DNA of 64,000 nt from positions 19,950 through 83,949 of the forward strand of contig CALUTL010000006.1 of assembly GCA_944323655.1 (NCBI GenBank). The letters run 5' to 3'. The stretch is from Candidatus Gastranaerophilales bacterium. GTDB taxonomy: Bacteria; Cyanobacteriota; Vampirovibrionia; Gastranaerophilales; Gastranaerophilaceae. The notes beneath the pieces were generated by a model. It ran no database searches, was not told the origin of the DNA, and saw nothing but the letters and a program-made list of their open reading frames with translations. Below, piece by piece: positions 34,148 to 47,423 of this stretch. How positions within the stretch are numbered: the first letter of the stretch is position 1; every line of letters begins with the position of its first letter. Position numbers and translations under genes: made by a program.

Positions 34148-35254
34148 TTAATTAAATAACTTTGAACATTTTTCTTGAATGTCTAATGCAATATCTTTTG
34201 CGAATTTTTCTTTTAGTCCTATATTTTTTGCCACGGCTAGAATATTATCTAAAGTTGGATTTTTACCCTCACCATTAATCGTAGTTGCGTGTTCGCCATT
34301 AAATGAAAAACTATAAGTCAAATCATACGCAGGAGATAAATGCCATTCTTTTTTTGTATCATCAAAAAGAAAAGAAAAATTCTTTGAATGGTCATCTCTG
34401 TTATGTGCAAACACATTAAAGCACATTAACCTGAATAATTGTTCAATATCTTGATAATTTCTTGTTAACTCAAGCGTAAGTTTCATCAATGTATTGTAAT
34501 CAAGGTTAGGAAACCTATGACTTGTTTCTAACAGCCCGCTTGCGGATACCATATGAACTTTTTTACCATTTTTGCGGTCAAACCTTTTTATTCCAAAATA
34601 TCCTGAACAAACTTTAGATGGGAATAGCCTTGTTTCAGTCATATTTATTCCGCAATCTTTTGCACATAGGGAATATTGATATTCTTTTTCACCAATATTT
34701 TTAGAATCAGAGGATGATGGAAACTTAATAATCCAATCCTCGTTATCAATAGATGTCAAAATCTTTGGTCTTGCTCCACCTGATGACCCGCCTAATTGAA
34801 AAAGTTCATCCAAATTATCCGAATTTTGTGATTCTAATATTTTTGAACACTCTTGTGCAAGAATATCATAATCCGCAATGTTATTTTTAGATTCAAACCT
34901 ATGTTCAGGTTTATAAGTTAAAGCCCCCATACCACTTTCTTGAACAACAGCAAGTCTATTGAGGTTATCTATTTCATTAGGGTTAATTTTATTTTTCAAA
35001 AATAACCTGTCAACAAGCAATCTTCCCCAACCGTCAGGCAAACTGTCGTTAAAAACTCCAAATAAACCGCCAAAAGGGTCGTATTTTGGGATAAAAACTT
35101 TCTTGATAAGCGGCAAACTAAAAGGTGAAATGCTAAATCCATTATTTAACCAATCTGAGTCATATTCAAAAGCAGCAACTCTTTCAGGTGTTTTGGCAAG
35201 AGTTCCAACTAAAATATCGTTATAAAAAACTTTTAAATATTTATAGTTATCCAT
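34148..35254 (-). CDS. hipA: HipA-family Ser/Thr kinase toxin
   Basis: LPDGWGR, GGSSGGARPK and DDHSKNFSF are HipA N- and C-domain signatures. Overlaps hipB by 8 nt. Confidence 0.9.
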   Translation of the reverse strand: MDNYKYLKVFYNDILVGTLAKTPERVAAFEYDSDWLNNGFSISPFSLPLIKKVFIPKYDPFGGLFGVFNDSLPDGWGRLLVDRLFLKNKINPNEIDNLNRLAVVQESGMGALTYKPEHRFESKNNIADYDILAQECSKILESQNSDNLDELFQLGGSSGGARPKILTSIDNEDWIIKFPSSSDSKNIGEKEYQYSLCAKDCGINMTETRLFPSKVCSGYFGIKRFDRKNGKKVHMVSASGLLETSHRFPNLDYNTLMKLTLELTRNYQDIEQLFRLMCFNVFAHNRDDHSKNFSFLFDDTKKEWHLSPAYDLTYSFSFNGEHATTINGEGKNPTLDNILAVAKNIGLKEKFAKDIALDIQEKCSKLFN

Positions 35255-35525
35255 TTATAACCTCATCAATTGAGTTGTAGCTTTTTTGCAAAAATAAATT
35301 TTCTAAATCATGCTCTAGATTAAGAGCTATTAGGATTTTTATAAAAGAATTCAGAGAAATTTCATACTTGGATTCAAACCTTTTTATAGAACCGAGACTT
35401 ACACCTGATTTAGTTGCAAGCTGAGCTTGAGAAATCTTAAGCTTTTTCCTGTGCTGCTTAATTTTCCCAACCAGTTCTTTTGCTATATCATTAGGAGTCT
35501 TAGGATTAAATATAAAGTTACCCAT
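35247..35525 (-). CDS. hipB: HipB-like XRE-family antitoxin
   Basis: KIKQHRKKLKISQAQLATKSGVSLGSIKRFE HTH, immediately upstream of and overlapping hipA. Confidence 0.8.
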   Translation of the reverse strand: MGNFIFNPKTPNDIAKELVGKIKQHRKKLKISQAQLATKSGVSLGSIKRFESKYEISLNSFIKILIALNLEHDLENLFLQKSYNSIDEVING

Positions 35526-35584
35526 AGATAATATATTATACTAATTTTATTTAAAAGTCAATAATTAGATAATATATTATCTAA
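35525..35584. promoter_or_regulatory. two palindromic putative HipB operators
   Basis: TAGATAATATATTATAC (35525-35541, touching the hipB start codon) and the perfect palindrome TTAGATAATATATTATCTAA (35565-35584). Confidence 0.5.
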
Positions 35585-35672
35585 TATTATATACAGAAAA
35601 AATACAACAAAATGAAGTTGTGTTGTATTTTTTGAATTCGGGAGCCAAATTTTCTAAACCCCGCTTGAATGC

Positions 35673-35701
35673 CGTTTAAACATTGTTTAAATAGTGTTTA
35701 A
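35673..35701. repeat. three 11-bp-phased GTTTAAA iterons upstream of the recombinase gene
   Basis: GTTTAAAcatt GTTTAAAtagt GTTTAAAtttt, at 35673, 35684 and 35695. Confidence 0.7.
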
Positions 35702-35771
35702 ATTTTGTGTCATTCGTCTTTACTTTTTATAGGGAAGAAGCAAACATTGTCTGTGATTAAGCGGATTTTAA

Positions 35772-36311
35772 ATGAACATAGTACAACCTATAAAAAAGAT
35801 AGAAGACATCCAAAAGATTAAAAAATATCTTGCAAAAAAGCCAAGAGATGCACTGCTTTTTAGTTTCGGGATAAATACAGGACTTAGAATATCTGATATA
35901 TTATCGCTTGATATTGGGGATGTAAAAGGCAGAGATTATATTGAAATTAGGGAGAAAAAGACGAATAAGTATAAGAAATTTCCGCTTAATAGATTTTTGA
36001 AGGAGGAGATTAATTTATTTGTAGAGGGTTTGGCGAGTGAGCAACCGCTTTTTTATACACAAAAACATTGCAGGCTTGATAGAGCACAGGCGTATAGAAT
36101 TTTGAATAAGGCAGCACAAGCTGTTGGGGTGAAGGAAAGAATCGGAACACATACGCTAAGGAAGACATTCGGATATCATCATTATAAAAAATATAATGAT
36201 ATAGTACTCCTGCAAAAAATCTTTAACCACTCCTCTCCATCAGTAACACTCCGCTACATCGGCATTGAACAAGACACAATAGATGAAAGTTATATGAATT
36301 TTTATTTATAA
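35772..36311 (+). CDS. minimal (catalytic-domain-only, FimB/FimE-sized) tyrosine recombinase
   Basis: 179 aa with GLRISDILSL (Arg I), HTLRKTFGYH (H-x-x-R), NHSS (His) and LRYIG (Tyr nucleophile). No N-terminal core-binding domain. Confidence 0.85.
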   Translation: MNIVQPIKKIEDIQKIKKYLAKKPRDALLFSFGINTGLRISDILSLDIGDVKGRDYIEIREKKTNKYKKFPLNRFLKEEINLFVEGLASEQPLFYTQKHCRLDRAQAYRILNKAAQAVGVKERIGTHTLRKTFGYHHYKKYNDIVLLQKIFNHSSPSVTLRYIGIEQDTIDESYMNFYL

Positions 36312-36413
36312 AAAGTTAATAATTAATTTACAGATTAAAGTTGCTGATAGAACAAATAACACTATTTATTATGTTAATATTACTGTATGACAAAATATTT
36401 CTTTACAAAACTC

Positions 36414-36442
36414 TTGACATTAAAAGTTTTTTATGTTAATAT
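36414..36442 (+). promoter_or_regulatory. consensus-like sigma70 promoter for the R-M operon (TTGACA-17 nt-TAATAT)
   Basis: TTGACA at 36414-36419, a 17-nt spacer, and TAATAT at 36437-36442. Lies ~160 nt upstream of the first ORF at 36606. Confidence 0.55.
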
Positions 36443-36605
36443 ATATGTAGAACAAAAATTCCTATGAACATAATAAAGGGTTTGTTCGATAGGAATTCTT
36501 TACACTAATAGTTTAATATTAGCCTGACAACTATATTTTAAACTATTAAAGAAGAAAAATCAAGTGTAGAGTTTTGTGTAGTAACCCTTTAGAAAGGATA
36601 AAATC

Positions 36606-36815
36606 ATGTTACGTAGATATTACGTAAACAACTCTGCGCAGTCAAATGGCGACCATGAAGTTCATGAAGAACATTGCACGTTCTTGAAACTAGCTGTTGA
36701 TGTTAAATTTCTCGGTTGGTTTGAAAACGGCATTCAAGCTGTAGCATATGCAAAGAAGTTTTATTCACGTGCTGATGGCTGTTTTTACTGTTGCAAAGAA
36801 GCGCACAAGCGTTAA
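36606..36815 (+). CDS. small Cys/His-rich protein (putative zinc-binding), unknown function
   Basis: 69 aa with NGDHEVHEEHC...GCFYCCKEAH. SD AAAGGA upstream. First ORF of the R-M transcription unit. Confidence 0.6.
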   Translation: MLRRYYVNNSAQSNGDHEVHEEHCTFLKLAVDVKFLGWFENGIQAVAYAKKFYSRADGCFYCCKEAHKR

Positions 36816-36871
36816 TTGAACTGTGAGGTAAGGGGGGGATTTCCCCCGCTCGCCTCAATAAAGGAAATTAA

Positions 36872-37507
36872 ATGAAAAAATTTACATTAAATCAAATAGT
36901 AGAAATTCAAGCCGGACTTGTTTTATCGAGAACGGGTGCTAAGCAACTTGAATTAATAAAAAGAAATGTTGCAGAAAAAGTTTCAGACATTACAGTTCGA
37001 AAATATAAAGCAATTACTTTACGTTCAATAACAGATGTTGGAATTTTAGATTTGTCTCAATGTGATGATTTTGATAGCAAAGAAGAAATTTCTGATAGAT
37101 ATTTAACACATAATAATGATATTTTAGTAAGAATGTTTACACCTTTGAAATGCTGTTTAATTAATAGCGAGGAAGAAAATCTTGTTGTTCCATCGCAGTT
37201 TTGTATTTTAAAGTTAAAAGATTCTTTCAGAGATATTATTTTACCTGAGTATTTGTATTTGGTAATGCGAAATAAGGATTTTTCAAAGCAAGTACAAAAA
37301 TTAGAAGAAGGTTTTCAATTGCGATCGATAAAAACGTCTTCTATTGCTAAAATCAAAATAAATATTCCAGACATTGCAACGCAAGAAAAACTTATTAATG
37401 TTTCAAATTTAATAAGAAGAAAAGAAAAACTGATGTCAGAATTAATTATTCAAGAAAAACTATACAATGAAACTATTTTAGAAAAATTAATCAAAGGAGA
37501 AATATAA
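36872..37507 (+). CDS. hsdS: type I R-M specificity subunit, half-size (single target-recognition domain)
   Basis: 211 aa: one TRD-sized region followed by the conserved helical tail IPDIATQEKLINVSNLIRRKEKLMSELIIQEKL. Its stop shares a nucleotide with the hsdM ATG (TAATG). Confidence 0.7.
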   Translation: MKKFTLNQIVEIQAGLVLSRTGAKQLELIKRNVAEKVSDITVRKYKAITLRSITDVGILDLSQCDDFDSKEEISDRYLTHNNDILVRMFTPLKCCLINSEEENLVVPSQFCILKLKDSFRDIILPEYLYLVMRNKDFSKQVQKLEEGFQLRSIKTSSIAKIKINIPDIATQEKLINVSNLIRRKEKLMSELIIQEKLYNETILEKLIKGEI

Positions 37508-39072
37508 TGAAAACTACAAGAGCAGATATAGAAGCAGCGTTATGGAGGGGGGCTAATACTTTTAGGGGTATTATTGATGCCGCAAACTATAAAGATTATG
37601 TATTATCAATGCTATTTGTAAAATATTTGAGTGATACATTCAAAGAAAATGTAGAAAATTTAAAATCAAAATATCCTGATGAACAAAGATTTGAAAGAGC
37701 AAAATCAAGACTGCCATTTGCACTAAGTGAAGAGCAAACCTTTGATTACTTATATGAGAATAGGTTCAACTCTGAAATCGGTCAAAAAATAAATGCAGCT
37801 TTAAGAGCAATAGAAGACAATAATCCACAGTTACAAGGAGTTTTCAGAAGTGTAGATTTTAATAGTGAACCTAATTTAGGAAACCCAAAGCAAAAAGCTA
37901 CAACTTTAAGAAATTTATTGGAAGATTTTAAATCTCTTGATTTAAGGCCTTCAATGATTGAAGTTAAAGAAAATCAAGTAGCGTCTGACGTTCTTGGAGA
38001 TGCATTTGAATATATGATTGGTGAATTTGCAAGCCAAGCAGGCAAAAAGGCCGGCTCATTCTTTACTCCAATGATGGTCTCAGAACTTATGGCACAAATC
38101 GCAAAACCTAAACAAGGAGATAGTATTTATGACCCAACCTCAGGTTCTTGCTCATTACTTATAAGGGCTGCAAAATATGCAGGAGTTAAGCAAGTATCAA
38201 TTTATGGACAAGAGATGAATGGTTCTTCTTGGTCAATGGGCAAAATGAATATGTTTATTCACGATATTATGGATTCTAAAATAGCTTGGGGAGACACTTT
38301 AGCAAATCCTGCTCACCTTGATAGTGATGGAAATCTGATGAAGTTCAATGTGGTTGTTGCTAATATGCCATTTTCTCAAGATAAGTGGGCTGAAGGGTTT
38401 AACCCTGGAGGGGAGAGTGATGGTAAAGAAAAAAACAAAGATAAAAAGTTTAAAATGGAAGCAAAGTATGATCCTTACAATAGGTTTGATTGGGGTATAC
38501 CACCTTCAAGTAAAGGTGATTGGGCATTTTTGCTACACATGATAAACAGTTTACAACCTGATGGAAGAATGGTTGCAGTAGTTCCGCATGGTGTCTTATT
38601 TAGAGGAGCTTCAGAGGGTATTATAAGAAAAAGAGTTATAGAAGAAAATCTTTTGGATGCTGTAATTGGACTGCCGGAAAACTTATTTTTTGGAACTTCA
38701 ATCCCTGCTTGCTTATTGGTTATTAAGAAAAACAGATCCGACAAAGATGTATTATTTATTGACGCATCAGGTGAAGGCAGATATGTCAAAGATAAAACAC
38801 AAAACAAACTAACTCAAAAGAATATTGATGATATTTTAGATGTTTATAATAAACGAGAAACAGTAGATAAATTCTCTTATGTGGCAACTTTTGAAGAAAT
38901 TAAAGAAAATGAGTTTAATTTAAACATTCCTCGCTATGTTGACACATTTGAGGAAGAAGAAATTATAGATATTGCGCAAGTGCAAACAAATATCAAAAAT
39001 ATTAAATCTGAGCTTGAAGTAGTTGAAAAGGACTTGGCAGATGCCCTTAAAGAATTAGGGGTGGAGGTATAA
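37507..39072 (+). CDS. hsdM: type I R-M N6-adenine DNA methyltransferase subunit
   Basis: N-terminal HsdM_N-like LWRGANTFRG, the AdoMet motif IYDPTSGSCSLL, and the catalytic VVANMPF (NPPF variant). Confidence 0.93.
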   Translation: MKTTRADIEAALWRGANTFRGIIDAANYKDYVLSMLFVKYLSDTFKENVENLKSKYPDEQRFERAKSRLPFALSEEQTFDYLYENRFNSEIGQKINAALRAIEDNNPQLQGVFRSVDFNSEPNLGNPKQKATTLRNLLEDFKSLDLRPSMIEVKENQVASDVLGDAFEYMIGEFASQAGKKAGSFFTPMMVSELMAQIAKPKQGDSIYDPTSGSCSLLIRAAKYAGVKQVSIYGQEMNGSSWSMGKMNMFIHDIMDSKIAWGDTLANPAHLDSDGNLMKFNVVVANMPFSQDKWAEGFNPGGESDGKEKNKDKKFKMEAKYDPYNRFDWGIPPSSKGDWAFLLHMINSLQPDGRMVAVVPHGVLFRGASEGIIRKRVIEENLLDAVIGLPENLFFGTSIPACLLVIKKNRSDKDVLFIDASGEGRYVKDKTQNKLTQKNIDDILDVYNKRETVDKFSYVATFEEIKENEFNLNIPRYVDTFEEEEIIDIAQVQTNIKNIKSELEVVEKDLADALKELGVEV

Positions 39073-39074
39073 AT

Positions 39075-39500
39075 ATGATATCTATTGGAATTAGAATAAC
39101 AGCTAAAGAATTAAGATATGCCATTATAGACTTAAAAAAAAGAATAATGTTAAATAAAGAAGATCATTGTGTAAAATTTCCTAAAAATATTGATGATGCA
39201 GAAAAATTCCAGTGGCTATATAAAGAAATTGAAGAAATAGTAAAACAATATCCTATAAATAAAGTTGTAATTTGTGAAAATAATTATGGTCGAGATTCAA
39301 AAGCATTAAGACTGTCTAATCGACTTGATGCAATAGTTGTATTAGCTTTTGCAAACAATTGTATACCAACAACAATAAAATCTCTAAACTTAAAAGAAGA
39401 AGATATGTTGGTAACAGCAGAAAAACATGTTGGAAAGACAGATAAATATTGGAATAAAATGATTGCATCTTGTATTATTGTTGCCATAGGAGATAAATAA
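39075..39500 (+). CDS. hypothetical 141-aa protein nested in the R-M operon (possibly RNase H-like/DUF3010-like fold, a weak guess)
   Basis: GGAGG lies 8 nt upstream of ATG 39075, which is 2 nt after the hsdM stop. Its 3' end carries the SD for the kinase gene. MISIGIRITAKELRYAIIDL...INKVVICEN loosely recalls RuvC/DUF3010-type N-termini. Confidence 0.7.
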   Translation: MISIGIRITAKELRYAIIDLKKRIMLNKEDHCVKFPKNIDDAEKFQWLYKEIEEIVKQYPINKVVICENNYGRDSKALRLSNRLDAIVVLAFANNCIPTTIKSLNLKEEDMLVTAEKHVGKTDKYWNKMIASCIIVAIGDK

Positions 39501-40553
39501 TTGACATACAAAGTAACATATAAAATAAATGAAAAATATGAAATAAAAAAACTTTTGGGGCAAGGAAATTTTGGCCAAGTCTACCTTGTTCATAATAAGA
39601 TTTTAAATAAAGAAAGAGTAATAAAAATAGTACAGGTTATAGATGCAGATACTTTTCAGGAAGCTCAAATTGGAAATATTATTACACATAAAAATTTAGT
39701 AAAAATTCATAGTGCAGAATATAATCAAGATTTACAACATTTAATTATTGAAATGGATTATTGTGAGAAAGGTTCAATAGAAAGTAAATTAAATGCAAAC
39801 GGTTATTTGCCATTAAAAAAGGCTATTAAATATACAATTGAGTTATTAAGAGGATTAGAAGCATTACATGGAAATAGTATTTTTCATAATGATATTAAAC
39901 CTAAAAATATCCTTATAAGTAGTGATGATAGAGCGATGTTAACTGATTATGGAATTGCGATGATGTCATCTGATAAACAACCAATAAATCCACAAAAAGG
40001 ATTTTACAAATTACATTATGCTCCAGAGTCTTTCGAAACAGCTTGTATAAATATATCAACAGATATATATCAAGTTGGACTTACTTTATTCAGAATTATT
40101 AATGGCGTTGAGGTTTTGCCAACAAAATTTTATCAAATAGGTGAAGAATCATATTTTGAATTAGTAAAAAGTGGCAAATTAATTGCTAAAAACGATTATT
40201 TAGACTTTGTTCCAAGACAAATAAAAATGATTATTAACAAAGCGATATCTCCTGATATTAAGAAACGATATCAAACAGCAAGAGAGATGAGGCATTCTTT
40301 AGAACAATTAATTATATCTGGAGACTGGAATCTTGATTCGAATGGTATTTTGTATGGAGAGGATAATAGATTTAAATATACATTTGATATTGAAACCAAA
40401 CAAAATAAATATAATTTTAAAGCATATAAAATTAATAAAAAGTCTAATATAAAAACACAAATTCATAAATATGATAAAAAAAATATTGATATTAAATCTT
40501 TAAATGCGCATAAAAAGAATTTCATGCAAGATGTTGTTACAGGAAATATATAA
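39501..40553 (+). CDS. Hanks-type Ser/Thr protein kinase with unassigned ~80-aa Lys/Asn-rich C-terminal tail
   Basis: LGQGNFGQVYLV (Gly loop), RVIKIV (Lys), HNDIKPKNILI (catalytic loop, non-RD), LTDYGIA (DFG-like), YAPE (APE). The TTG start directly follows the orf141 stop, with AGGAG 8 nt upstream. No in-frame ATG lies upstream of the Gly loop. Confidence 0.88.
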   Translation: MTYKVTYKINEKYEIKKLLGQGNFGQVYLVHNKILNKERVIKIVQVIDADTFQEAQIGNIITHKNLVKIHSAEYNQDLQHLIIEMDYCEKGSIESKLNANGYLPLKKAIKYTIELLRGLEALHGNSIFHNDIKPKNILISSDDRAMLTDYGIAMMSSDKQPINPQKGFYKLHYAPESFETACINISTDIYQVGLTLFRIINGVEVLPTKFYQIGEESYFELVKSGKLIAKNDYLDFVPRQIKMIINKAISPDIKKRYQTAREMRHSLEQLIISGDWNLDSNGILYGEDNRFKYTFDIETKQNKYNFKAYKINKKSNIKTQIHKYDKKNIDIKSLNAHKKNFMQDVVTGNI

Positions 40554-41820
40554 AAGGGCTATAGAAACTGTGTTAAAAAACAAAAAAGAAGAAATTAAAA
40601 ATAGAATAGATTTAATTAATCGAGGGGAAGTTCCCGAGGGTTATAAATGTTGTTGGGGGTACATATACCCTGAATCTTGGAATATTAAAAGTTTAAAAGA
40701 TCTGTTCTACAAAGTTAAAACAAAAAATGCAGCAAATGAGAGTTTGCCTGTTTTAACCAACTCTGCAACACTTGGTGTAATTTTGCAAGATGAATATTTT
40801 GATAGAGAAATTGTAAATGATGAAAATACCAATAATTATTATATTGTTGAAAATGGAGATTTCATGTATAATCCACGGATTTCATCCAATGCACCGGCAG
40901 GACCAATTAACAGGAATACACTCGGACAAAAGGGTATAGCGTCACCTTTGTATACTATATTCAGAGCTAAAGATACTAAAAATATTGAATTTGTAGAAAA
41001 ATATTTTAAGTCAAATTATTGGCATAGATACATGAAAAGTGTTTCGAATCAAGGTGCACGACATGATCGACTAAACATAAATGATGAAGATTTTATGCGT
41101 ATGCCTATTCCTCAACCATCAAAACAAGAGCAGGAGAAGATTGCGAAGATTTTGAACTGCTGTGATAAGGTTATTGAACTTAAACAAAAATTGCTGGAAG
41201 AAAAAAATAAAGAATTTATTATTGCTATTAATAAATTAATTTATAAAAATAATCTGAAGTATCCAATAAAAAAAATTGAAGAAGTTTGTGAAATATTAGA
41301 TAATAAAAGAATTCCATTAAATGACGAAGAAAGATTAAATATAAAAGGATCAATACCTTATTATGGTGCAAATGGTGTTTTAGACTTTATCAATAAATAT
41401 ATATTTGATGAAGAGCTTGTTTTATTGGCTGAAGATGGTGGACATTTTGATGAATATTATAAGAGACCTATTGCACAATTTGTAAAAGGAAAATCTTGGA
41501 TAAATAATCATGCTCATATTTTGAAAGCAAAAAATAAAGAAAATTTATACTTGTATTTTTCACTAGTTCATAAAAATATTTTATCTATATTAAATGGAGC
41601 AGGTCGTGCAAAATTAAATCAAGCAGATTTAAAAAAAATAAAAATACCATATCCTGAAGACAAAAAACAGAATGAAATAGCTAGAATATTATCGATGAAA
41701 GAAAAGCACATTAAACTTTTAGAACAAGAACTTGATCAATATAAGCAGCTAAAAAAAGCCCTTTCACAACTGCTTTTGACAGGCATTGTAAGAATAGTGG
41801 AGGTAGATTGTGAAAACTGA
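40504..41820 (+). CDS. hsdS: type I R-M specificity subunit, full-size (two TRDs)
   Basis: Two TRD-sized regions separated by the central conserved helix PQPSKQEQEKIAKILNCCDKVIELKQKLLEEK. The C-terminal helix reads KKQNEIARILSMKEKHIKLLEQELDQYKQLKKAL. The start is uncertain (ATG 40504 or 40531); either overlaps the kinase gene's 3' end. Confidence 0.88.
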   Translation: MRIKRISCKMLLQEIYKRAIETVLKNKKEEIKNRIDLINRGEVPEGYKCCWGYIYPESWNIKSLKDLFYKVKTKNAANESLPVLTNSATLGVILQDEYFDREIVNDENTNNYYIVENGDFMYNPRISSNAPAGPINRNTLGQKGIASPLYTIFRAKDTKNIEFVEKYFKSNYWHRYMKSVSNQGARHDRLNINDEDFMRMPIPQPSKQEQEKIAKILNCCDKVIELKQKLLEEKNKEFIIAINKLIYKNNLKYPIKKIEEVCEILDNKRIPLNDEERLNIKGSIPYYGANGVLDFINKYIFDEELVLLAEDGGHFDEYYKRPIAQFVKGKSWINNHAHILKAKNKENLYLYFSLVHKNILSILNGAGRAKLNQADLKKIKIPYPEDKKQNEIARILSMKEKHIKLLEQELDQYKQLKKALSQLLLTGIVRIVEVDCEN

Positions 41821-42760
41821 TGTTTATTTTGCAAAAAAAGACGGGATGTTATTGATTGCTTATGAAAACCATAAGCAACAAAATGTTTTTTTGCAGGTTG
41901 ATTATGCAGATTTTGCCCCTCAAATACGAGCACAACTTATATGTGACAAAAATTATAATATTGAAAAAATTATCACTAATGCTTATGAATATCCGATTAT
42001 AAAAAAAGAAAATATGGAAATCGGAGTTAAATATAAACATATTTGGAAGCCTTTAATGCAAAATAATATAGAAAAAGAGCTAGATTTTTCTGTACAAGAA
42101 GCATATAGAGCCAAAAGAGATTTAGGAATACTTATTCAAAAACTGCAAGAAATTTTGTTATTTATTGAACCATCTAATGAAGGATTAAAAGCATATAGTC
42201 ATAAGGCAAGAGAACTATTGTTTTTAGCCTGTTCAGATCTTGAATGCAGTTTAAAAAAATATTGTTTTGGAAAAAATGACAGAATGAAAGATTATGTTAA
42301 ATTAATTGATTATATAGATTTAACAAAATATAAATTATCTCTTGTCGGGTATTCAAATCCATATAAATGTTGTCCTTTTGAAAATTGGAATAAAAAAGAG
42401 CCGTCAAAATCAATTCCCTGGTATTATGCATACAACCAAATTAAACATAATATTGATAAGAACTTTCATATGGCAACTCTTGAAAACTGTATTAATGCAA
42501 TAGCTGCAAATATTATTTTATTTGCTGTCAGGTATTCAGTACGGTATATATATGGAAAAGACGATGTTTGTTCTAATTTAATAAAAAGTTCTTTGGATTA
42601 TAGAATTGAAAATAGTATGGATTTTTATATCCCAATTTATGAAGGCGAAAGAAGTTATTCCGGAGCATTTACGATGCCATACAAATTTCATAACGGACAA
42701 GTTGTTGAAAATAGCTATGATATAGGAAATCTTCTTCCTTTTGTAGAAAAAGAATTGTAA
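41810..42760 (+). CDS. hypothetical 316-aa protein nested between hsdS and hsdR
   Basis: GTG 41810 is preceded by GGAGG (41799-41803) and lies 11 nt inside hsdS. The ORF ends 17 nt before hsdR. No Walker motif seen. The segment WYYAYNQIKHNIDKNF is noted, but no family was recognised. Confidence 0.72.
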   Translation: MKTDVYFAKKDGMLLIAYENHKQQNVFLQVDYADFAPQIRAQLICDKNYNIEKIITNAYEYPIIKKENMEIGVKYKHIWKPLMQNNIEKELDFSVQEAYRAKRDLGILIQKLQEILLFIEPSNEGLKAYSHKARELLFLACSDLECSLKKYCFGKNDRMKDYVKLIDYIDLTKYKLSLVGYSNPYKCCPFENWNKKEPSKSIPWYYAYNQIKHNIDKNFHMATLENCINAIAANIILFAVRYSVRYIYGKDDVCSNLIKSSLDYRIENSMDFYIPIYEGERSYSGAFTMPYKFHNGQVVENSYDIGNLLPFVEKEL

Positions 42761-42777
42761 AATATAAGGAAATAATT

Positions 42778-45700
42778 ATGACATTAAATCATTACCAATA
42801 TAACGAAAGACCTGAAAGCCAAGAACCTGCAATCGAATTGCTTGAAAAATTGGGCTGGAAATATTTATCACCCACCGACGCAGAAAAACAACGTGGGAAT
42901 TTATATAATGTAATTTTAAAAGACGATTTAATGAATTTTTTAAAAGAGCAAAGATATGATTACAAAGGTGAAAAATTCCAATTTTCTTCAAGCAATATTG
43001 CTCATGCTATTTCTGATATTGATATTCCTTTGCAGTCAGGTTTGATGAAGACTTCAAAAGAAATATATGATCTTTTGATTTATGGAAAAAGCTACGAAGA
43101 AGATTTGTATGATGGCGGAAAATCCTCTTTTGATTTAAAATTTATTGATTGGAAACATCCTGAAAAGAATATTTTAAGAGTTACAGAGGAGTTTTCTGTT
43201 CAAAAGTTGGACCGCTCCAAAAGGCGTCCTGATATTGTTTTAACAGTTAATGGAATTCCTCTAGTTGTAATCGAATGCAAGAAGTCTTCAGTTAGTATTG
43301 ATGAAGGTATAAGACAAAATATTAAAAATTGGAAAGCTGATGAAATTCCACATTTATTTAAATTTATTCAACTGGTAGTTGCAATGAATTCACATAGTTT
43401 TAAATATGGAACCTGTGGAACAAAATTTGAGTTTTTTGTACCTTGGAAGGAAAAAGATACTGATTGGATGAATAAACAGTTAGAAGAATTAATTCAAGGA
43501 AGGCTTCCAAAAGAACAAGATAAAAATATAATTGCAATGCTTTCACCTGAAAGATTGTTTGAAATAATACAATATTATACGTTATACGATAATAATGTAA
43601 AAAAAGTTGCCAGATATCAACAATTTTTTGGAATTCGAAAAGCTATTAACCGTATTACACTAAAAGATGGCAAAGGAACAAGAAATGGTGTGATTTGGCA
43701 TACTCAAGGCAGTGGAAAATCATTAACCATGGTTATGCTTGTAAAAAAAATTATTGCAGTTTCTCAAGAAGAAAATTCTGATATAAAAAATCCTAGGTTT
43801 GTTCTTGTAAATGACAGAATTAATTTAGACAAACAGTTAAGAGATAACTTCTCTAATACCCAGATGAATCCTGCAAGAGCAAAAACAGGCAAAGGTTTAA
43901 TTGAATTATTAAAAGATGAGGGTGAAACTCTTATTACTACTGTTATTCATAAATTTGAAAAAGCAGCAAAACAAAAGACTAAATTAAATGACAACAACAT
44001 ATTTATTTTAATAGATGAATGCCATAGAACACAGAGTGGCAATTTTCATAATTTCATGACGGATGTTTTACCAAATGCTGTAAAAATTGGATTTACCGGT
44101 ACTCCATTATTAAAAACAGAAAAACAAAGTACGTATGACAGGATTGGTCCGTTAATAGATAGTTATCCGATTAATAAGGCTGAAGAAGATAAGGTTATTG
44201 TTCCTCTTGTTTATGAAGGTCGTAAAATTCCGCAAAAAACTACAAGCGATGCAATTGATCAATATCTGGAACAAAGTCTAATTGGATTAACCGAGCAACA
44301 ACAGGAAGATTTAAAACGTAAATATAGTAGATTTACAAGTATTGCTCCAACAATGCCTAGGTTGACTTGTCTTGCATATGCAATAAAACAACATTATGAA
44401 AGATACATTAAACCAAATGGATTTAAAGCTATGATTGCAGAATCCTCAAGAGTAAGTGCTATTGAATTACATAAACTGCTAAAAAGCCTTGGTTTAAAAA
44501 CAGCTGTAGTAATTTCCCCAGAAGCAAGAGCTGAAGGTGAAGAATTAAACAATAGTGATAAAGATAAAATTGCGCAATTTTTTAAAACCGAAATTGAGCC
44601 TTTATATGGAATGAATTATGAAGCTTATGAAGATTGGGCAAAAAATAGCTTTACCGATGGTGAAGATATTGATATTTTAATAGTAAAAGATAAATTATTA
44701 ACTGGATTTGATGCTCCTATTGCACAAGTTTTGTATGTAGATAAATCAATGAAAACGCATAATTTATTACAAGCTATTGCTAGAGTAAATAGAGTTTTTC
44801 CTGGCAAAAAGAATGGGCGAATTGTTGATTTTTATGGTATTTTTGAGAATTTAACTTCTGCTATGGACTTGTATTCAGATAAAGAATCCGGAATGAATCA
44901 GTTTGATAAAGACGATATTAAAAAAACTATATATGGTCCGGAAGATGTAAAAAAAGAACTGTATAACAACTATGATCAAGTTATGCAATTTATTGCAGGA
45001 CATAACACTGATGACACAGAAGAAATACAATTATTATTTAAAGATGAAGATATAAGAAAAGATTTTTATGAAAAACTATTGAATTTTTCAAACTCACTTG
45101 ATACGGCAATAAGTAATTATAATGTATATGAAGGAATTGGTATTGATGAAATTAAAAGATTGCAAAAAGATTATGTCTATTTGCAAAAATTAAGAAGTGG
45201 CATAAAACTTCGATATGGTGAGACTGTTGATTTTTCTGTTTATGAATCTTCCATTAAAAATTTACTAAATCAATTCGTTTCAGCCGAAGCTGATGAAATT
45301 GTAATAAATCCGCTTTATCTATCAGATAAAGCAACTATGGAAAAAGAATTAGAAAAGCTACCCTCTTTAAGGGCTAAAGCAGAAGCTATGGTATATAATA
45401 TAGCAACAAGGCTCTCTGAGACAAGAGAAAAAGACCCGATTTTTTATAAAACATTTAGACAAAGATTAGACGAAACTATTGCAGAGTATAATAAAACAAG
45501 AAATGAAGAAGCTTATTTAGCACAAATGAAAGATCTTGAAAATGATTACGAAAAGGGATTTGTTGGGAATAAATATCCAACGGTTATTTCTGATGATGAT
45601 GACGCTAAAGGTTTTTATGGAAATATAAAATTAGAATTAGAAAAAAATATCAAAATCTCAGAAAATGATGATATAGATAATCAACTGGGTATTTTGGCAA

Positions 45701-45894
45701 TATTAATAAAAAATACATTTAGAAATTCCCAAAAACCAGGGTGGCAATATAATACAGTACTTATAAATAACATAAAACAAGAAATTGAAGATGCTATTTT
45801 TGATTTTGTAGATAATAATGGTATTACATTGGATATGGACCAACTAGATAAAATAGAAGAAGATATTTTAATGACTGCAAAGAGTATATTTTGA
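42778..45894 (+). CDS. hsdR: type I restriction enzyme R subunit (SF2 helicase-nuclease)
   Basis: 1038 aa with a PD-(D/E)xK-like N-terminus (PDIVLTVNGIPLVVIECKK), Walker A TQGSGKSLTM, DEAH-like LIDECHRTQ, and TGTPL. Confidence 0.95.
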   Translation: MTLNHYQYNERPESQEPAIELLEKLGWKYLSPTDAEKQRGNLYNVILKDDLMNFLKEQRYDYKGEKFQFSSSNIAHAISDIDIPLQSGLMKTSKEIYDLLIYGKSYEEDLYDGGKSSFDLKFIDWKHPEKNILRVTEEFSVQKLDRSKRRPDIVLTVNGIPLVVIECKKSSVSIDEGIRQNIKNWKADEIPHLFKFIQLVVAMNSHSFKYGTCGTKFEFFVPWKEKDTDWMNKQLEELIQGRLPKEQDKNIIAMLSPERLFEIIQYYTLYDNNVKKVARYQQFFGIRKAINRITLKDGKGTRNGVIWHTQGSGKSLTMVMLVKKIIAVSQEENSDIKNPRFVLVNDRINLDKQLRDNFSNTQMNPARAKTGKGLIELLKDEGETLITTVIHKFEKAAKQKTKLNDNNIFILIDECHRTQSGNFHNFMTDVLPNAVKIGFTGTPLLKTEKQSTYDRIGPLIDSYPINKAEEDKVIVPLVYEGRKIPQKTTSDAIDQYLEQSLIGLTEQQQEDLKRKYSRFTSIAPTMPRLTCLAYAIKQHYERYIKPNGFKAMIAESSRVSAIELHKLLKSLGLKTAVVISPEARAEGEELNNSDKDKIAQFFKTEIEPLYGMNYEAYEDWAKNSFTDGEDIDILIVKDKLLTGFDAPIAQVLYVDKSMKTHNLLQAIARVNRVFPGKKNGRIVDFYGIFENLTSAMDLYSDKESGMNQFDKDDIKKTIYGPEDVKKELYNNYDQVMQFIAGHNTDDTEEIQLLFKDEDIRKDFYEKLLNFSNSLDTAISNYNVYEGIGIDEIKRLQKDYVYLQKLRSGIKLRYGETVDFSVYESSIKNLLNQFVSAEADEIVINPLYLSDKATMEKELEKLPSLRAKAEAMVYNIATRLSETREKDPIFYKTFRQRLDETIAEYNKTRNEEAYLAQMKDLENDYEKGFVGNKYPTVISDDDDAKGFYGNIKLELEKNIKISENDDIDNQLGILAILIKNTFRNSQKPGWQYNTVLINNIKQEIEDAIFDFVDNNGITLDMDQLDKIEEDILMTAKSIF

Positions 45895-46598
45895 TGAAAA
45901 AATATTATTTATTAAAAGATAAAAAAGGGTTCTTAATTGATATAGAACGTAAGAATATTAAAAACTATAATATAAGGATTTTGCCTGACAATAACATAAA
46001 GTGTTCAGTCCCAATGCAGACTACAGATGAAGAGATTTCCAAGTTTTTAAAATCTAAAGAATGCTGGATCTATAAACACAATGTCAGACAAGAAAAACTT
46101 CAACCATTACAAAATAAAGATATTCTGAAAAATGGTGGTTTTGTTAAAATTTTAGGACATTTTTATAATGTAAAAATCGAATCATCACAAAGTTTTAAAA
46201 TCATTTTAAATGATAGGAATATCATTTTTTATACAAATGAAGTTGATAATATTGATAAAAAATATCGAAATTTTGCAAGAAAAAATATGCAAGAATATTT
46301 TGAAAAGGTAATAGAAAAATTTTATCCAATAATAAGAAAATATAATAAACCTAAACCAATATTAAAAATTAGAAAAATGAAAGCCTGCTGGGGAACTAGT
46401 AATCCTGAACAAAATGCAATTACTTTAAATGAATATTTATATTCAGCATCTCCTTATTGTATTGAATATGTTGTGCTGCATGAATTAACTCATTTTTTAT
46501 ACACAAATCATGATAAACAATTTTTTGATTTTATAAGTATTCATATGCCAGATTGGCAAGAACGAAAAAACAAATTAAATACAGATTTTAATATATAA
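45894..46598 (+). CDS. YgjP/DUF45-like (M48/WLM-like) zinc metallopeptidase
   Basis: VVLHELTHFLYTNHDKQFFDFISIHMPDWQERKNKL (HExxH plus the typical downstream pattern). The ATG overlaps the hsdR stop (TGATG). Confidence 0.82.
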   Translation: MKKYYLLKDKKGFLIDIERKNIKNYNIRILPDNNIKCSVPMQTTDEEISKFLKSKECWIYKHNVRQEKLQPLQNKDILKNGGFVKILGHFYNVKIESSQSFKIILNDRNIIFYTNEVDNIDKKYRNFARKNMQEYFEKVIEKFYPIIRKYNKPKPILKIRKMKACWGTSNPEQNAITLNEYLYSASPYCIEYVVLHELTHFLYTNHDKQFFDFISIHMPDWQERKNKLNTDFNI

Positions 46599-46653
46599 AC
46601 TTGCTTTTATCTTGATTTTAAGTGATGAATACGATACCTAAAAAGGAGGTCGT

Positions 46654-46878
46654 ATGAGTAAAAATAAGAAATATCGCATTAAGCAAAAAGATTTTAGGAA
46701 GTTGGAAAAACTAGCAGAGCGGATTTATAACACAACTACTGTGATTGATTATTTTTGCAGGACGCAACAAGAAATTGAAGAGCTATATAATCTTGCCCAA
46801 ATTGTAGAAAATTTAAGGCGAGATTCTGATACTGTAAACGCATTTTTTATAAATTATCCTGACAACAAAAATTTTTAG
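46654..46878 (+). CDS. hypothetical small protein
   Basis: 74-aa ORF with a strong SD AAAGGAGG 5 nt upstream. Confidence 0.6.
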   Translation: MSKNKKYRIKQKDFRKLEKLAERIYNTTTVIDYFCRTQQEIEELYNLAQIVENLRRDSDTVNAFFINYPDNKNF

Positions 46879-47016
46879 ATGGTATTTAAAACTTGTTTTA
46901 ATACTGTTCAAAAAGTGTTCAAAAATGGATTGTGTCTGAATGATACGTTTTGTGTTTATTTACTTGATATTTGACCCATTGAGAGTGATATATATCATTG
47001 CTGATAAGAGGTAGCA

Positions 47017-47232
47017 ATGATTGAATTAGGCAAAAAATACAAGCTTAAAAAGATTAAAGGTTTTAAGAGCTCTGATAATGAGTATTACAAAGTAATTGGC
47101 TTCTACAATTTCGACACTGTAATTTGTGAAAACACTTGCGGAGAAAGATTTGTATTTATGAAAGAGTTTTTAATAGACCCACAAAAGCCTGATGATATCT
47201 ATTCAGATTTGATACTTGAAAGGAAAGAATGA
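47017..47232 (+). CDS. hypothetical small protein
   Basis: 71-aa ORF with AGAGG upstream. Overlaps the next ORF (ATGA). Confidence 0.5.
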   Translation: MIELGKKYKLKKIKGFKSSDNEYYKVIGFYNFDTVICENTCGERFVFMKEFLIDPQKPDDIYSDLILERKE

Positions 47233-47423
47233 TGACAGAAAAAGACTATGCACTTTATGGAACAAAGGTTTTGAATTTAAAAACACAAGAAATCGGATTA
47301 CTGATTTGTATATGGAAAAATAAGTTTGCAGATGCAGAGATAGATTACGCAACTTGTGTTGATAAGCAAGGCAAAAAATACAACATAGAGCTAATTGATA
47401 TTATCCCATTTGAGAAAAAATAA
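47229..47423 (+). CDS. hypothetical small protein
   Basis: 64-aa ORF translationally coupled to the previous one. Confidence 0.5.
   Translation: MMTEKDYALYGTKVLNLKTQEIGLLICIWKNKFADAEIDYATCVDKQGKKYNIELIDIIPFEKK

Follow-up and report, generated by a model that had tools for sequence, protein, structure and literature searches.

RESULTS AND DISCUSSION

Gene content of the locus

We analyzed a Type I restriction-modification (R-M) locus in a 64,000-nucleotide stretch of DNA, here called the window, from Candidatus Gastranaerophilales bacterium (contig CALUTL010000006.1, positions 19,950 to 83,949). An earlier note had placed nine + strand open reading frames (ORFs) between positions 36606 and 46598 of the window, and all nine were recovered there: orf69, a short hsdS, hsdM, orf141, a kinase gene, a long hsdS, orf316, hsdR, and a gene for a YgjP-like peptidase. 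The promoter, leader, hairpin, cassette, and downstream ORFs described below lie on the same strand. In our judgment, the locus is quite likely a Type I R-M operon built on the plan short S - M - long S - R - YgjP peptidase, that is, a chassis with two cargo slots, both of which are filled.

Gene identities were established by scans against Pfam, NCBIfam (curated cutoffs), and PADLOC 2.0 models. The N6-adenine methyltransferase gene hsdM (37507 to 39072) contains the DPTSGSCS and NMPF motifs and matches TIGR00497 with 297.8 bits (cutoff, 242.75) and N6_Mtase with an E value of 2.6e-102. hsdR (42778 to 45894) matches TIGR00348 with 505 bits (cutoff, 284.55), with HSDR_N, SWI2_SNF2, and T1R_D3 domains, a PD-(D/E)xK nuclease motif (D...ECK), and the GSGKS and DECH helicase motifs. 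The short HsdS (36872 to 37507; 211 amino acids [aa]) consists of one target recognition domain (TRD) and one coiled-coil helix; it matches the PADLOC model Specificity_I at 2e-14, and its Pfam score of 18.1 bits is under the cutoff of 22. In the long HsdS (40570 to 41820; longest ORF from 40504), which has two TRDs, Methylase_S matches in two stretches with 112 bits. The last gene (45891 to 46598), coupled to the hsdR stop codon, encodes a YgjP-like/SprT-like HExxH metallopeptidase with the motif HELTH (PF01863, 149.7 bits; cutoff, 26). Judged from these matches, this is a working-looking Type I R-M operon with intact chassis genes, and it is the only Type I system found in the 1.95-Mb genome, in which the window lies on contig 6. 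The description of a tightly packed Type I locus that has two S genes, begins with a leader mini-protein, and ends with an HExxH peptidase thus holds, as does the statement that four of the nine genes lack a canonical R-M role; the genes are probably cotranscribed.

The junctions measure 56 nt between orf69 and the short hsdS, a 1-nt overlap between the short hsdS and hsdM, 2 nt between hsdM and orf141, 0 nt between orf141 and the kinase gene, an 11-nt overlap between the long hsdS and orf316, and 17 nt between orf316 and hsdR. hsdR and the peptidase gene overlap by 4 nt if the latter starts at TTG 45891 or by 1 nt if it starts at ATG 45894. These lengths agree with those given earlier for all junctions but one, the kinase/hsdS "overlap," which hangs on ATG 40504 as the start of the long hsdS. 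The gene probably starts instead at GTG 40570, behind AAGGG, because homology to relatives resumes at 40567 and their N termini begin there; therefore, the kinase/hsdS junction would be a 16-nt gap.

A mosaic operon with two cargo slots

We compared about 150 related loci, here labeled L plus a number; 80 genome loci with orf316 relatives were gathered, and the window proteins were then mapped onto each of them. The closest public loci come from gut metagenome-assembled genomes (MAGs) of Gastranaerophilales/Melainabacteria. The record of L010 (CABROM010000004.1), 96 to 100% identical to the window, is titled "uncultured Clostridium sp.," a label that is probably wrong because the remaining close relatives are all Gastranaerophilales/Melainabacteria MAGs.

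The chassis genes, namely, orf69, the short hsdS, hsdM, the long hsdS, hsdR, and the YgjP peptidase gene, recur across phyla, and the same arrangement of them was seen in Melainabacteria, Alpha- and Epsilonproteobacteria, and Elusimicrobia. The Gastranaerophilales loci L010, L011, and L014 to L017 have the full series orf69 - short S - hsdM - slot - long S - orf316 - hsdR - YgjP, as do the gut alphaproteobacterial MAGs L022 and L035, whose HsdM is 78% identical to that of the window; L012 and L013, both cut short, have the chassis parts as far as they reach. In L003 to L005, the first slot is occupied by RhuM plus orf124 and the second by an orf316 homologue. The chassis was also found in L113, L114 to L116, L131, L132, and an Arcobacter plasmid, as well as on Methylocystis parvus pMpar-1 and Novosphingobium resinovorum pHR1a. 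A short S is present at the same gene position in L003, L113, L114, L123, L126, L127, and L131, and the peptidase is at the same position in L003, L113, L114, L126, L127, L131, and L132. The M. parvus OBBP plasmid pMpar-1 (L126; NZ_CP092969.1, 225934 to 235643) belongs to a cultured organism and has both slots filled, in the order short S - hsdM - GIY-YIG - long S - orf141-family gene - Ser/Thr kinase - hsdR - SprT-like peptidase. In experiments, its host could conveniently take the place of the uncultured organism from which the window comes.

The comparison with L010 defines the cargo of the first slot to the base. At the DNA level, the two loci are 96.8% identical up to 39074, two bases past the hsdM stop codon; no similarity is left over 39075 to 40566; identity is back at 40567 to 40647, the conserved hsdS N terminus; and it is 96.6% over 41060 to 47392. 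From the breakpoints at 39074/39075 and 40567, it follows that the orf141-kinase cassette (39075 to 40566) is a discrete 1.49-kb insert, whose ends coincide exactly with the stop of hsdM and the start of hsdS. Breakpoints known to the base show how such cassettes are exchanged; exchange would proceed by homologous recombination, with the conserved 3' end of hsdM on one side and the conserved N-terminal region of hsdS on the other.

In the relatives, the hsdM/hsdS slot contains a DUSP-like phosphatase plus DUF4160 (L010 and L011), DUF3644 (L012; PADLOC PDC-S19), DUF6119 (L014), RhuM (PDC-S05) with DUF3644, DUF6119, or DUF4160 (L015 to L017), a Fic-HTH protein (L020; PDC-S72), an OLD nuclease (L025; the cargo of relatives includes a PADLOC Old match), or DUF3800 (L032). 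orf141 plus kinase occupies this slot only in the window, L013, and L090. The cargo thus lies between hsd genes, is replaced in close relatives, and is found outside R-M operons, the pattern known as "guilt by embedding."

These data bear on the proposal that the nine genes form one integrated system, in which a short S homodimer would act on a palindrome, the long S on an asymmetric target, and the unassigned genes as dedicated accessory subunits. The tight gene packing is in keeping with such a system. In operons that are 97% identical, however, the supposed accessory genes orf141 and kinase are swapped for unrelated ones at exact gene boundaries; the same pair also occurs in the other slot or without any R-M genes, and distant orf316 relatives are solitary (51 genome loci and 16 viral contigs). 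The comparison of operon composition across genomes, which the earlier note had called for, therefore revealed a mosaic and no integrated nine-gene system. The locus is a mosaic with exchangeable guest modules, not one new nine-part machine, and the short S, discussed next, leaves the integrated system highly improbable.

Short and long HsdS

The two S genes vary in different ways. In L010, L011, and L012, respectively, the short S is 99, 96, and 95% identical to that of the window, HsdM is 99, 98, and 98% identical, and the long S is 74, 73, and 32% identical. In L013, HsdM shows 97% and the long S 40% identity, and the short S falls outside the contig. The corresponding values are 60 to 62% (short S), 88 to 89% (HsdM), and 32 to 55% (long S) in L014 to L017, and in L022 and L035 they are 42 and 41% (short S), 78% (HsdM), and 27% and 40% (long S; partial matches). 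Hence, the short S follows hsdM in divergence within the clade, whereas the long S shuffles TRDs, with TRD1 and TRD2 swapping independently among relatives. Between distant clades, the short S genes share about 20% identity.

TRD1 of the long hsdS (about 40648 to 41059) is unrelated to that of the otherwise 97%-identical L010 copy, and TRD2 is common to both. By sequence comparison, this is a clean natural exchange of a single TRD, separate from the cassette swap. In L012 and L013, both long-S TRDs differ from those of the window.

A half-size S next to a full-size one had led to the suggestion of two specificities from a single M/R scaffold. The short S does have a complete TRD and a coiled-coil helix, half-S subunits of Type IC enzymes, whether engineered or truncated in nature, dimerize and recognize palindromes (Abadjieva 1993; MacWilliams and Bickle 1996, as cited in PMC10030836), and the short-S TRDs differ between distant clades, all of which would also suit the integrated system set out above. 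Nonetheless, within the clade, the short S never swaps TRDs, and the long S does. A layout of short S - hsdM - long S has been published for Staphylococcus xylosus and other staphylococci (Front Microbiol 2023, PMC10030836), where the short S is invariant among strains methylating different motifs and never recombines with the long S; moreover, when the S. xylosus genes were placed in Escherichia coli, the expected single nonpalindromic motif was obtained only with both S genes (PMC10030836). This is the sole hsdSMS system tested, and it argues against the integrated system as well. Since the pattern in the window, a short S that coevolves with hsdM and a long S that swaps TRDs, matches this S. 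xylosus variant, in which both S proteins serve one nonpalindromic motif, two specificities from one M/R set are very unlikely here.

The resemblance to S. xylosus hsdRSMS extends to a short S of about 190 to 210 aa with one TRD placed directly before hsdM, with the long S after it, and to a conserved, nonrecombining short S paired with a TRD-swapping long S. The HsdM proteins of the window and of the S. xylosus hsdSMS system are 39% identical. Unlike the window, the staphylococcal operon has the order R-S-M-S, with hsdR first under its own promoter; it has no YgjP peptidase, embedded cargo, or leader gene; and its HsdR belongs to another lineage, only 25% identical to that of the window. The conserved short S and the YgjP peptidase indicate that a large Type I subfamily has accessory biology still to be explained.

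The orf141-kinase pair

The cargo of the first slot consists of orf141 (39075 to 39500) and a Hanks-type Ser/Thr kinase gene (39501 to 40553). The kinase has intact G-loop, K42, E54, HND131, DYG, and APE motifs and matches Pkinase (7.8e-37); its best PADLOC matches are to the models PDLC04042 (PD-T4-6; 9.8e-42) and mad6 (4e-41). Kinases of such pairs are 34 to 44% identical over their full length, with a common C-terminal domain of about 80 aa and with the G-loop, K42, E54, H129-N-D131, N136, D149-Y-G, and P175-E invariant. Membership in two known kinase-containing systems was considered and rejected. For MADS, NCBIfam scores were 139.6 against a cutoff of 460 for MAD6, 48.3 against 720 for MAD2, and 16 to 25 against 400 for MAD5, and MAD1, MAD3, MAD4, MAD7, and MAD8 were not found; for BREX type 2, PglW scored 61 against a cutoff of 990, and no other BREX genes were present.

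orf141 belongs to a family of 78 cluster representatives, each of about 150 aa, recovered by a full HMMER search, with the consensus MK.LGIR.SP..IRYA ... NEY ... MADAI.AA. Weak matches to DUF3010 were seen in 6 of 40 members and to RuvC in 5 of 40. For orf141 itself, the DUF3010 score was 15.4 bits (cutoff, 25), the RuvC NF000711 score was 22.3 bits (cutoff, 163), and the best PDB sequence match was RuvC, with a nonsignificant E value; in RuvC/DUF3010 terms, it falls short of the curated threshold and lacks the full DEDD catalytic set. Throughout the family, Arg replaces the first catalytic Asp of RuvC; in the window copy, the last Asp is missing as well. A fold resemblance to RuvC/RNase H-like proteins is likely from these weak matches, and the RuvC-fold partner is probably not catalytic. 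Within the phylum, apart from the window copy, only weak matches were found (frames of 160 to 230 aa and one of 417 aa), which are probably genuine RuvC. A pattern scan of metagenome contigs with a reduced alignment found no orf141-family member.

Genomic contexts of the family were obtained from exact look-ups. In 12 of 12 distinct loci, the orf141-family gene directly precedes a gene for a kinase of 350 to 360 aa, whose start overlaps or abuts it. Three of these loci have the pair in the hsdM/hsdS slot (window, L013, and L090), six in the hsdS/hsdR slot (L113, L114 to L116, pMpar-1, pHR1a, L131, and L132), and three are free-standing (L111/L112; L117, on an integrative and conjugative element [ICE]; and L128 to L130, on viral contigs). 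As judged from these contexts, orf141 and the kinase gene form an autonomous two-gene module.

We infer that this module acts in kinase-based abortive infection, with a toxin-antitoxin-like role as the main alternative. In the latter case, the pair would be an addiction module stabilizing a mobile R-M island, with the kinase as toxin and the small upstream gene product as antitoxin, as in HipBA. The overlapping stop and start codons of a small upstream gene and a kinase gene in every locus, the occurrence of the pair on plasmids, an ICE, and viral contigs, and the HipBA genes adjoining this operon and several of its relatives all fit an addiction pair. On the other hand, orf141 has the signature of a RuvC/RNase H-like fold in place of a DNA-binding antitoxin-type domain, and the kinase is of the Hanks type, not the HipA type; furthermore, toxin-antitoxin-like behavior and abortive-infection defense can coexist. 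Taken together, we regard the addiction pair as unlikely and retain abortive infection as the working interpretation.

orf316, the cargo of the second slot

orf316 (41810 to 42760) lies in the hsdS/hsdR slot, where PrrC-type cargo is found. It has 142 homologues, all unnamed, with the invariant residues E120, P121, Y129, H131, K132, E145, W204, Y205, Y208, K212, H213, N234, and R241. An AlphaFold model built on the family alignment (pLDDT, 91.4; pTM, 0.88) predicts a helical core with a beta domain on its N-terminal side and a beta region on its C-terminal side, and in this model E120, H131, K132, E145, Y205, Y208, K212, H213, N234, and R241 cluster in the helical core. No Pfam family was matched by any of 25 members even at an E value of 10, and there was no NCBIfam or PADLOC match; a Foldseek search of the PDB gave nothing at an E value of ≤0.001, and neither did a profile search of PDB sequences give a match. 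In BFVD, the one real match was an uncharacterized Siphoviridae fragment. orf316 thus represents a widespread family with a confident model and no known fold, present both in R-M slots and on prophages. Two assignments were tried, and neither is claimed. PrrC anticodon nuclease shares only the position with orf316, which has no P-loop and none of the family matches just mentioned. A HEPN nuclease, which we leave open but do not claim, gained only a faint Foldseek match to HepT (probability, 0.13; TM score, 0.44 on the target), and the Rx4-6H motif is absent.

Of 28 genome loci with close homologues of orf316 (>50% identity), 26 have the gene in the hsdS/hsdR slot. The neighboring HsdR proteins fall into two lineages, with 76 to 99% and 33 to 35% identity to the HsdR of the window, and orf316 itself is 60 to 66% identical. 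The distant homologues in 51 genome loci have no conserved neighbor. By its distribution, orf316 matches a solitary guest gene that favors the PrrC slot.

Genes of the orf316 family (27 to 41% identity) are also carried by 16 IMG/VR viral contigs of 4 to 45 kb (L139 to L154), with no R-M genes nearby; in one of them, L140, a tyrosine recombinase gene lies directly upstream. In a Treponema sp. MAG (L021, 10001 to 10943), an orf316 homologue with 76 to 79% identity is split into two frames, has no adjoining hsdR, and is probably decaying.

The positions of orf316 and of the kinase pair raise the question of a PrrC-type guard, in which the guests would be tied to the Type I enzyme, silent in the intact complex, and released by an anti-restriction protein (Ocr, ArdA, or Stp-like). 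The slot of orf316 is precisely that of PrrC, its close homologues adjoin hsdR of both lineages, orf141 plus kinase is within a Type I operon in 9 of 12 loci, and Vibrio cholerae TgvAB protected 10- to 100-fold better within its whole cluster (PMC11411939). However, both modules are also found standing alone, next to unrelated genes, on an ICE, and on viral contigs; either slot can house the kinase pair; and many unrelated cargo types fill the same slots. A guard function is therefore possible but doubtful, and we continue to treat both cargoes as guests of the chassis.

Promoter, leader RNA, and orf69

Upstream of the operon, a scan detected the promoter proposed earlier, TTGACA-17-TAATAT (TG-extended) at 36414 to 36442. 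Such matches are not above chance here (68 found versus 73 expected); the site is supported by conservation of its sequence, which reaches loci whose HsdM is only 78% identical. Within the promoter region (36365 to 36457), a 31-nt element is duplicated 62 nt apart (36365 to 36395 and 36427 to 36457), the second copy covering the −10 box. The −35 and −10 boxes and both elements are conserved in L010, L011, and L014 to L017 and are recognizable in L022/L035. The 31-nt elements are candidate operator sites or tandem promoters. The promoter region is about 80% identical to that of L022 at the DNA level, above the 56% amino acid identity of the orf69 proteins.

Between the promoter and orf69 lies a conserved, structured 5' leader of about 160 nt (36443 to 36605), which is not in the earlier note. 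Three helices are predicted: P1, a hairpin AAUUCCUAUGAAC/GUUCGAUAGGAAUU; P2, a long-range helix CUUUACAC/GUGUAGAG; and P3, an inner hairpin enclosed by P2. P2 shows compensatory changes, A-U to G-C in L014 to L017 and U-A to A-U in L022; in L022, P1 and P3 are kept as hairpins with different sequences. An Rfam scan returned only the tRNA and no match for the leader. The 160-nt leader is a candidate cis-regulatory RNA of R-M operons.

orf69 (36606 to 36815) encodes a 69-aa Cys/His mini-protein with the family motif N..AQ.NGDHEVH...C ... DGC..C..(C)H. Its 35 homologues are 66 to 74 aa long, with N8, Q12, N14, G15, D16, H17, E18, V19, H20, and C24 invariant. The AF2 model (pLDDT, 93) is confident and rich in beta structure, with one helix and Cys/His ligands; searches of the PDB by fold and by sequence gave no match, and no family was found. 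orf69 is probably zinc-binding, and it is a candidate regulator. It lies upstream of the short S in all complete relatives of the clade (L010, L011, L014 to L017, L022, and L035).

The 56-nt junction after orf69 contains the hairpin noted earlier, at 36824 to 36857 (−24.2 kcal/mol; z = −3.5). It is GC-rich, directly follows the orf69 stop, and has no U-tract. L014, L016, and L022, representing three other clades, have a hairpin at this site too, with z = −3.9 to −4.1, but its sequence is unrelated. The hairpin may be a partial terminator or a 3'-end stabilizer of the upstream cistron that sets the ratio of orf69 to R-M expression.

Relation to published systems and proposed working

The arrangement had been singled out as novel, but it is already published (PMC12255303; PMC11411939; bioRxiv 10.1101/2024.01.29.577857). 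In the enteropathogenic Escherichia coli (EPEC) E2348/69 RRDM island, the order is rptR-hsdM-hsdS-darT-darG-hsdR-M48 peptidase (NAR 2025, PMC12255303), and the hsdS/hsdR site has been termed a hotspot (PMC12255303). RptR, a helical protein of 79 aa that has alpha4 as its DNA-recognition helix and TAGCTA as its operator, represses the island from repeats in its promoter (PMC12255303). Both loci open with a small leader gene, which is followed by a Type I R-M operon with a two-gene defense module set between hsd genes and, at the end, a Zn-metallopeptidase; they also have one regulated upstream promoter with repeated operator elements, which in the window are candidates only. Unlike the window, the RRDM island has no short S, fills only one slot, and carries DarTG2 in place of the kinase pair or orf316; its leader RptR is a helical DNA-binding repressor, whereas orf69 is a beta-rich Cys/His protein of an unrelated predicted fold. 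We accordingly rejected orf69 as an RptR homologue, with only the position and the repeated promoter elements being analogous. By analogy with RptR on the RRDM island, orf69 or the leader may regulate the operon.

Exchangeable cargo that lies between hsd genes and also elsewhere is likewise known from PrrC in EcoprrI, TgvAB in V. cholerae VPI-2 (PMC11411939), and the HEC/PDC candidates (Payne et al., bioRxiv 10.1101/2024.01.29.577857), and relatives of the window carry PDC-S05 (RhuM), PDC-S19 (DUF3644), PDC-S72 (Fic), or Old in the slot. The window differs from these embedded systems in that orf141 and orf316 match no PADLOC 2.0 model and orf316 has neither a P-loop nor similarity to PrrC. As a Hanks-type Ser/Thr kinase with intact catalytic residues, the kinase resembles PD-T4-6 of E. 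coli, Stk2 of Staphylococcus epidermidis, MAD6 of MADS, and PglW of BREX type 2. It differs from them in its distinct conserved C-terminal domain, and from PD-T4-6, which is listed as a single gene, in always following a RuvC/DUF3010-like partner. By comparison with these systems, the overall design of a leader gene, Type I operon, guest defense genes, and Zn-peptidase matches the RRDM island, which has been studied by experiment, and fits the embedded-defense concept, and the operon as a whole is another case of the published idea that Type I R-M operons serve as landing pads for defense cargo. We found no published description of the obligate RuvC-like plus kinase pair, the orf316 family, the orf69 family, or the structured leader.

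In the working that we propose, transcription would start at the conserved promoter and pass through the structured leader and orf69, and read-through of the conserved hairpin into the R-M genes would yield more orf69 than enzyme. Two HsdM subunits plus the long S, assisted by the short S, would methylate one bipartite motif, and the addition of HsdR would lead to restriction of unmethylated DNA. orf141 and the kinase would provide a self-contained second line of defense: the RuvC-fold partner would serve as a sensor or a restraint, while the active non-RD Hanks kinase would phosphorylate host or phage proteins, leading to aborted infection as in Stk2- or PD-T4-6-like systems. orf316 would be a solitary effector with a conserved His/Lys/Glu/Arg cluster in its helical core. 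Taken jointly, the locus would hold, on an ordinary chassis, an undescribed two-gene anti-phage system (a degenerate RuvC-fold sensor plus a dedicated Hanks kinase with its own C-terminal domain), a solitary orf316 effector family that spans phyla and prophages and has no solved or annotated fold relative, and a regulatory unit of zinc-type orf69, covarying 160-nt leader, and intercistronic hairpin that controls the R-M operon. We put this joint reading forward tentatively, as a proposal that may well fail in part.

Several points weigh against the proposed working. The grounds for a defense role of orf141 plus kinase and of orf316 are their embedding, their mobility, and a match to a generic kinase model, and PADLOC 2.0 has no model that orf141 or orf316 matches. 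The nearly constant position of close orf316 homologues beside hsdR could mean functional coupling to the enzyme and not autonomy. Distant orf69 homologues are not linked to R-M genes; some lie among housekeeping genes, and others precede unknown genes or a DndB-like gene and CBASS. As for the assisting role of the short S, the S. xylosus experiment was reported without successful complementation (PMC10030836), its carry-over to the window is an extrapolation, and the alignment of the short S with S. xylosus HsdS_short covers 127 aa at an identity of only 16% (pairwise E value, 2e-5).

If true, the strictly conserved RuvC-like plus kinase pair would extend kinase-based immunity (Stk2 and PD-T4-6) to a two-component form with a possible nucleic acid sensor. 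The leader RNA and orf69, in turn, offer a way into island regulation in gut Melainabacteria and their gene-sharing partners.

Downstream genes and neighborhood

The conserved codirectional block extends past the YgjP gene with orf74 and orf64, an extension missing from the earlier note. Three small codirectional ORFs, orf74 (46654 to 46878), orf71 (47017 to 47232), and orf64 (47229 to 47423), lie beyond YgjP; orf74 and orf64 are kept 3' of YgjP in L010 and L014 to L017, and orf71 is kept in L010 and L014. No family was found for any of them, nor was a terminator-like site found ahead of them. They may belong to the transcription unit.

The neighborhood is a defense island with HipBA, a small tyrosine recombinase, an OLD-like ATPase-Toprim gene, and Mrr. 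The tyrosine recombinase (179 aa; 35772 to 36311) consists of the catalytic domain only, lies upstream of the operon, and is kept in L010, L011, and L014 but not in L015 to L017. An hsdS shufflon or phase variation through this adjacent recombinase was considered and rejected: 35500 to 47000 contains no significant direct or inverted repeats, and both hsdS genes have the same orientation. In L006, two genes similar to this recombinase flank a solitary orf316 homologue.

A HipA/HipB pair was found near the short-S Type I operon in the window (34148 to 35525), L010, L014, and L032. The recurrence of these gene neighbors suggests that the HipA/HipB pair and the short-S Type I operon travel together in several unrelated hosts. 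On the Arcobacter plasmid (L123), only an annotated HipA-family toxin gene lies near the operon.

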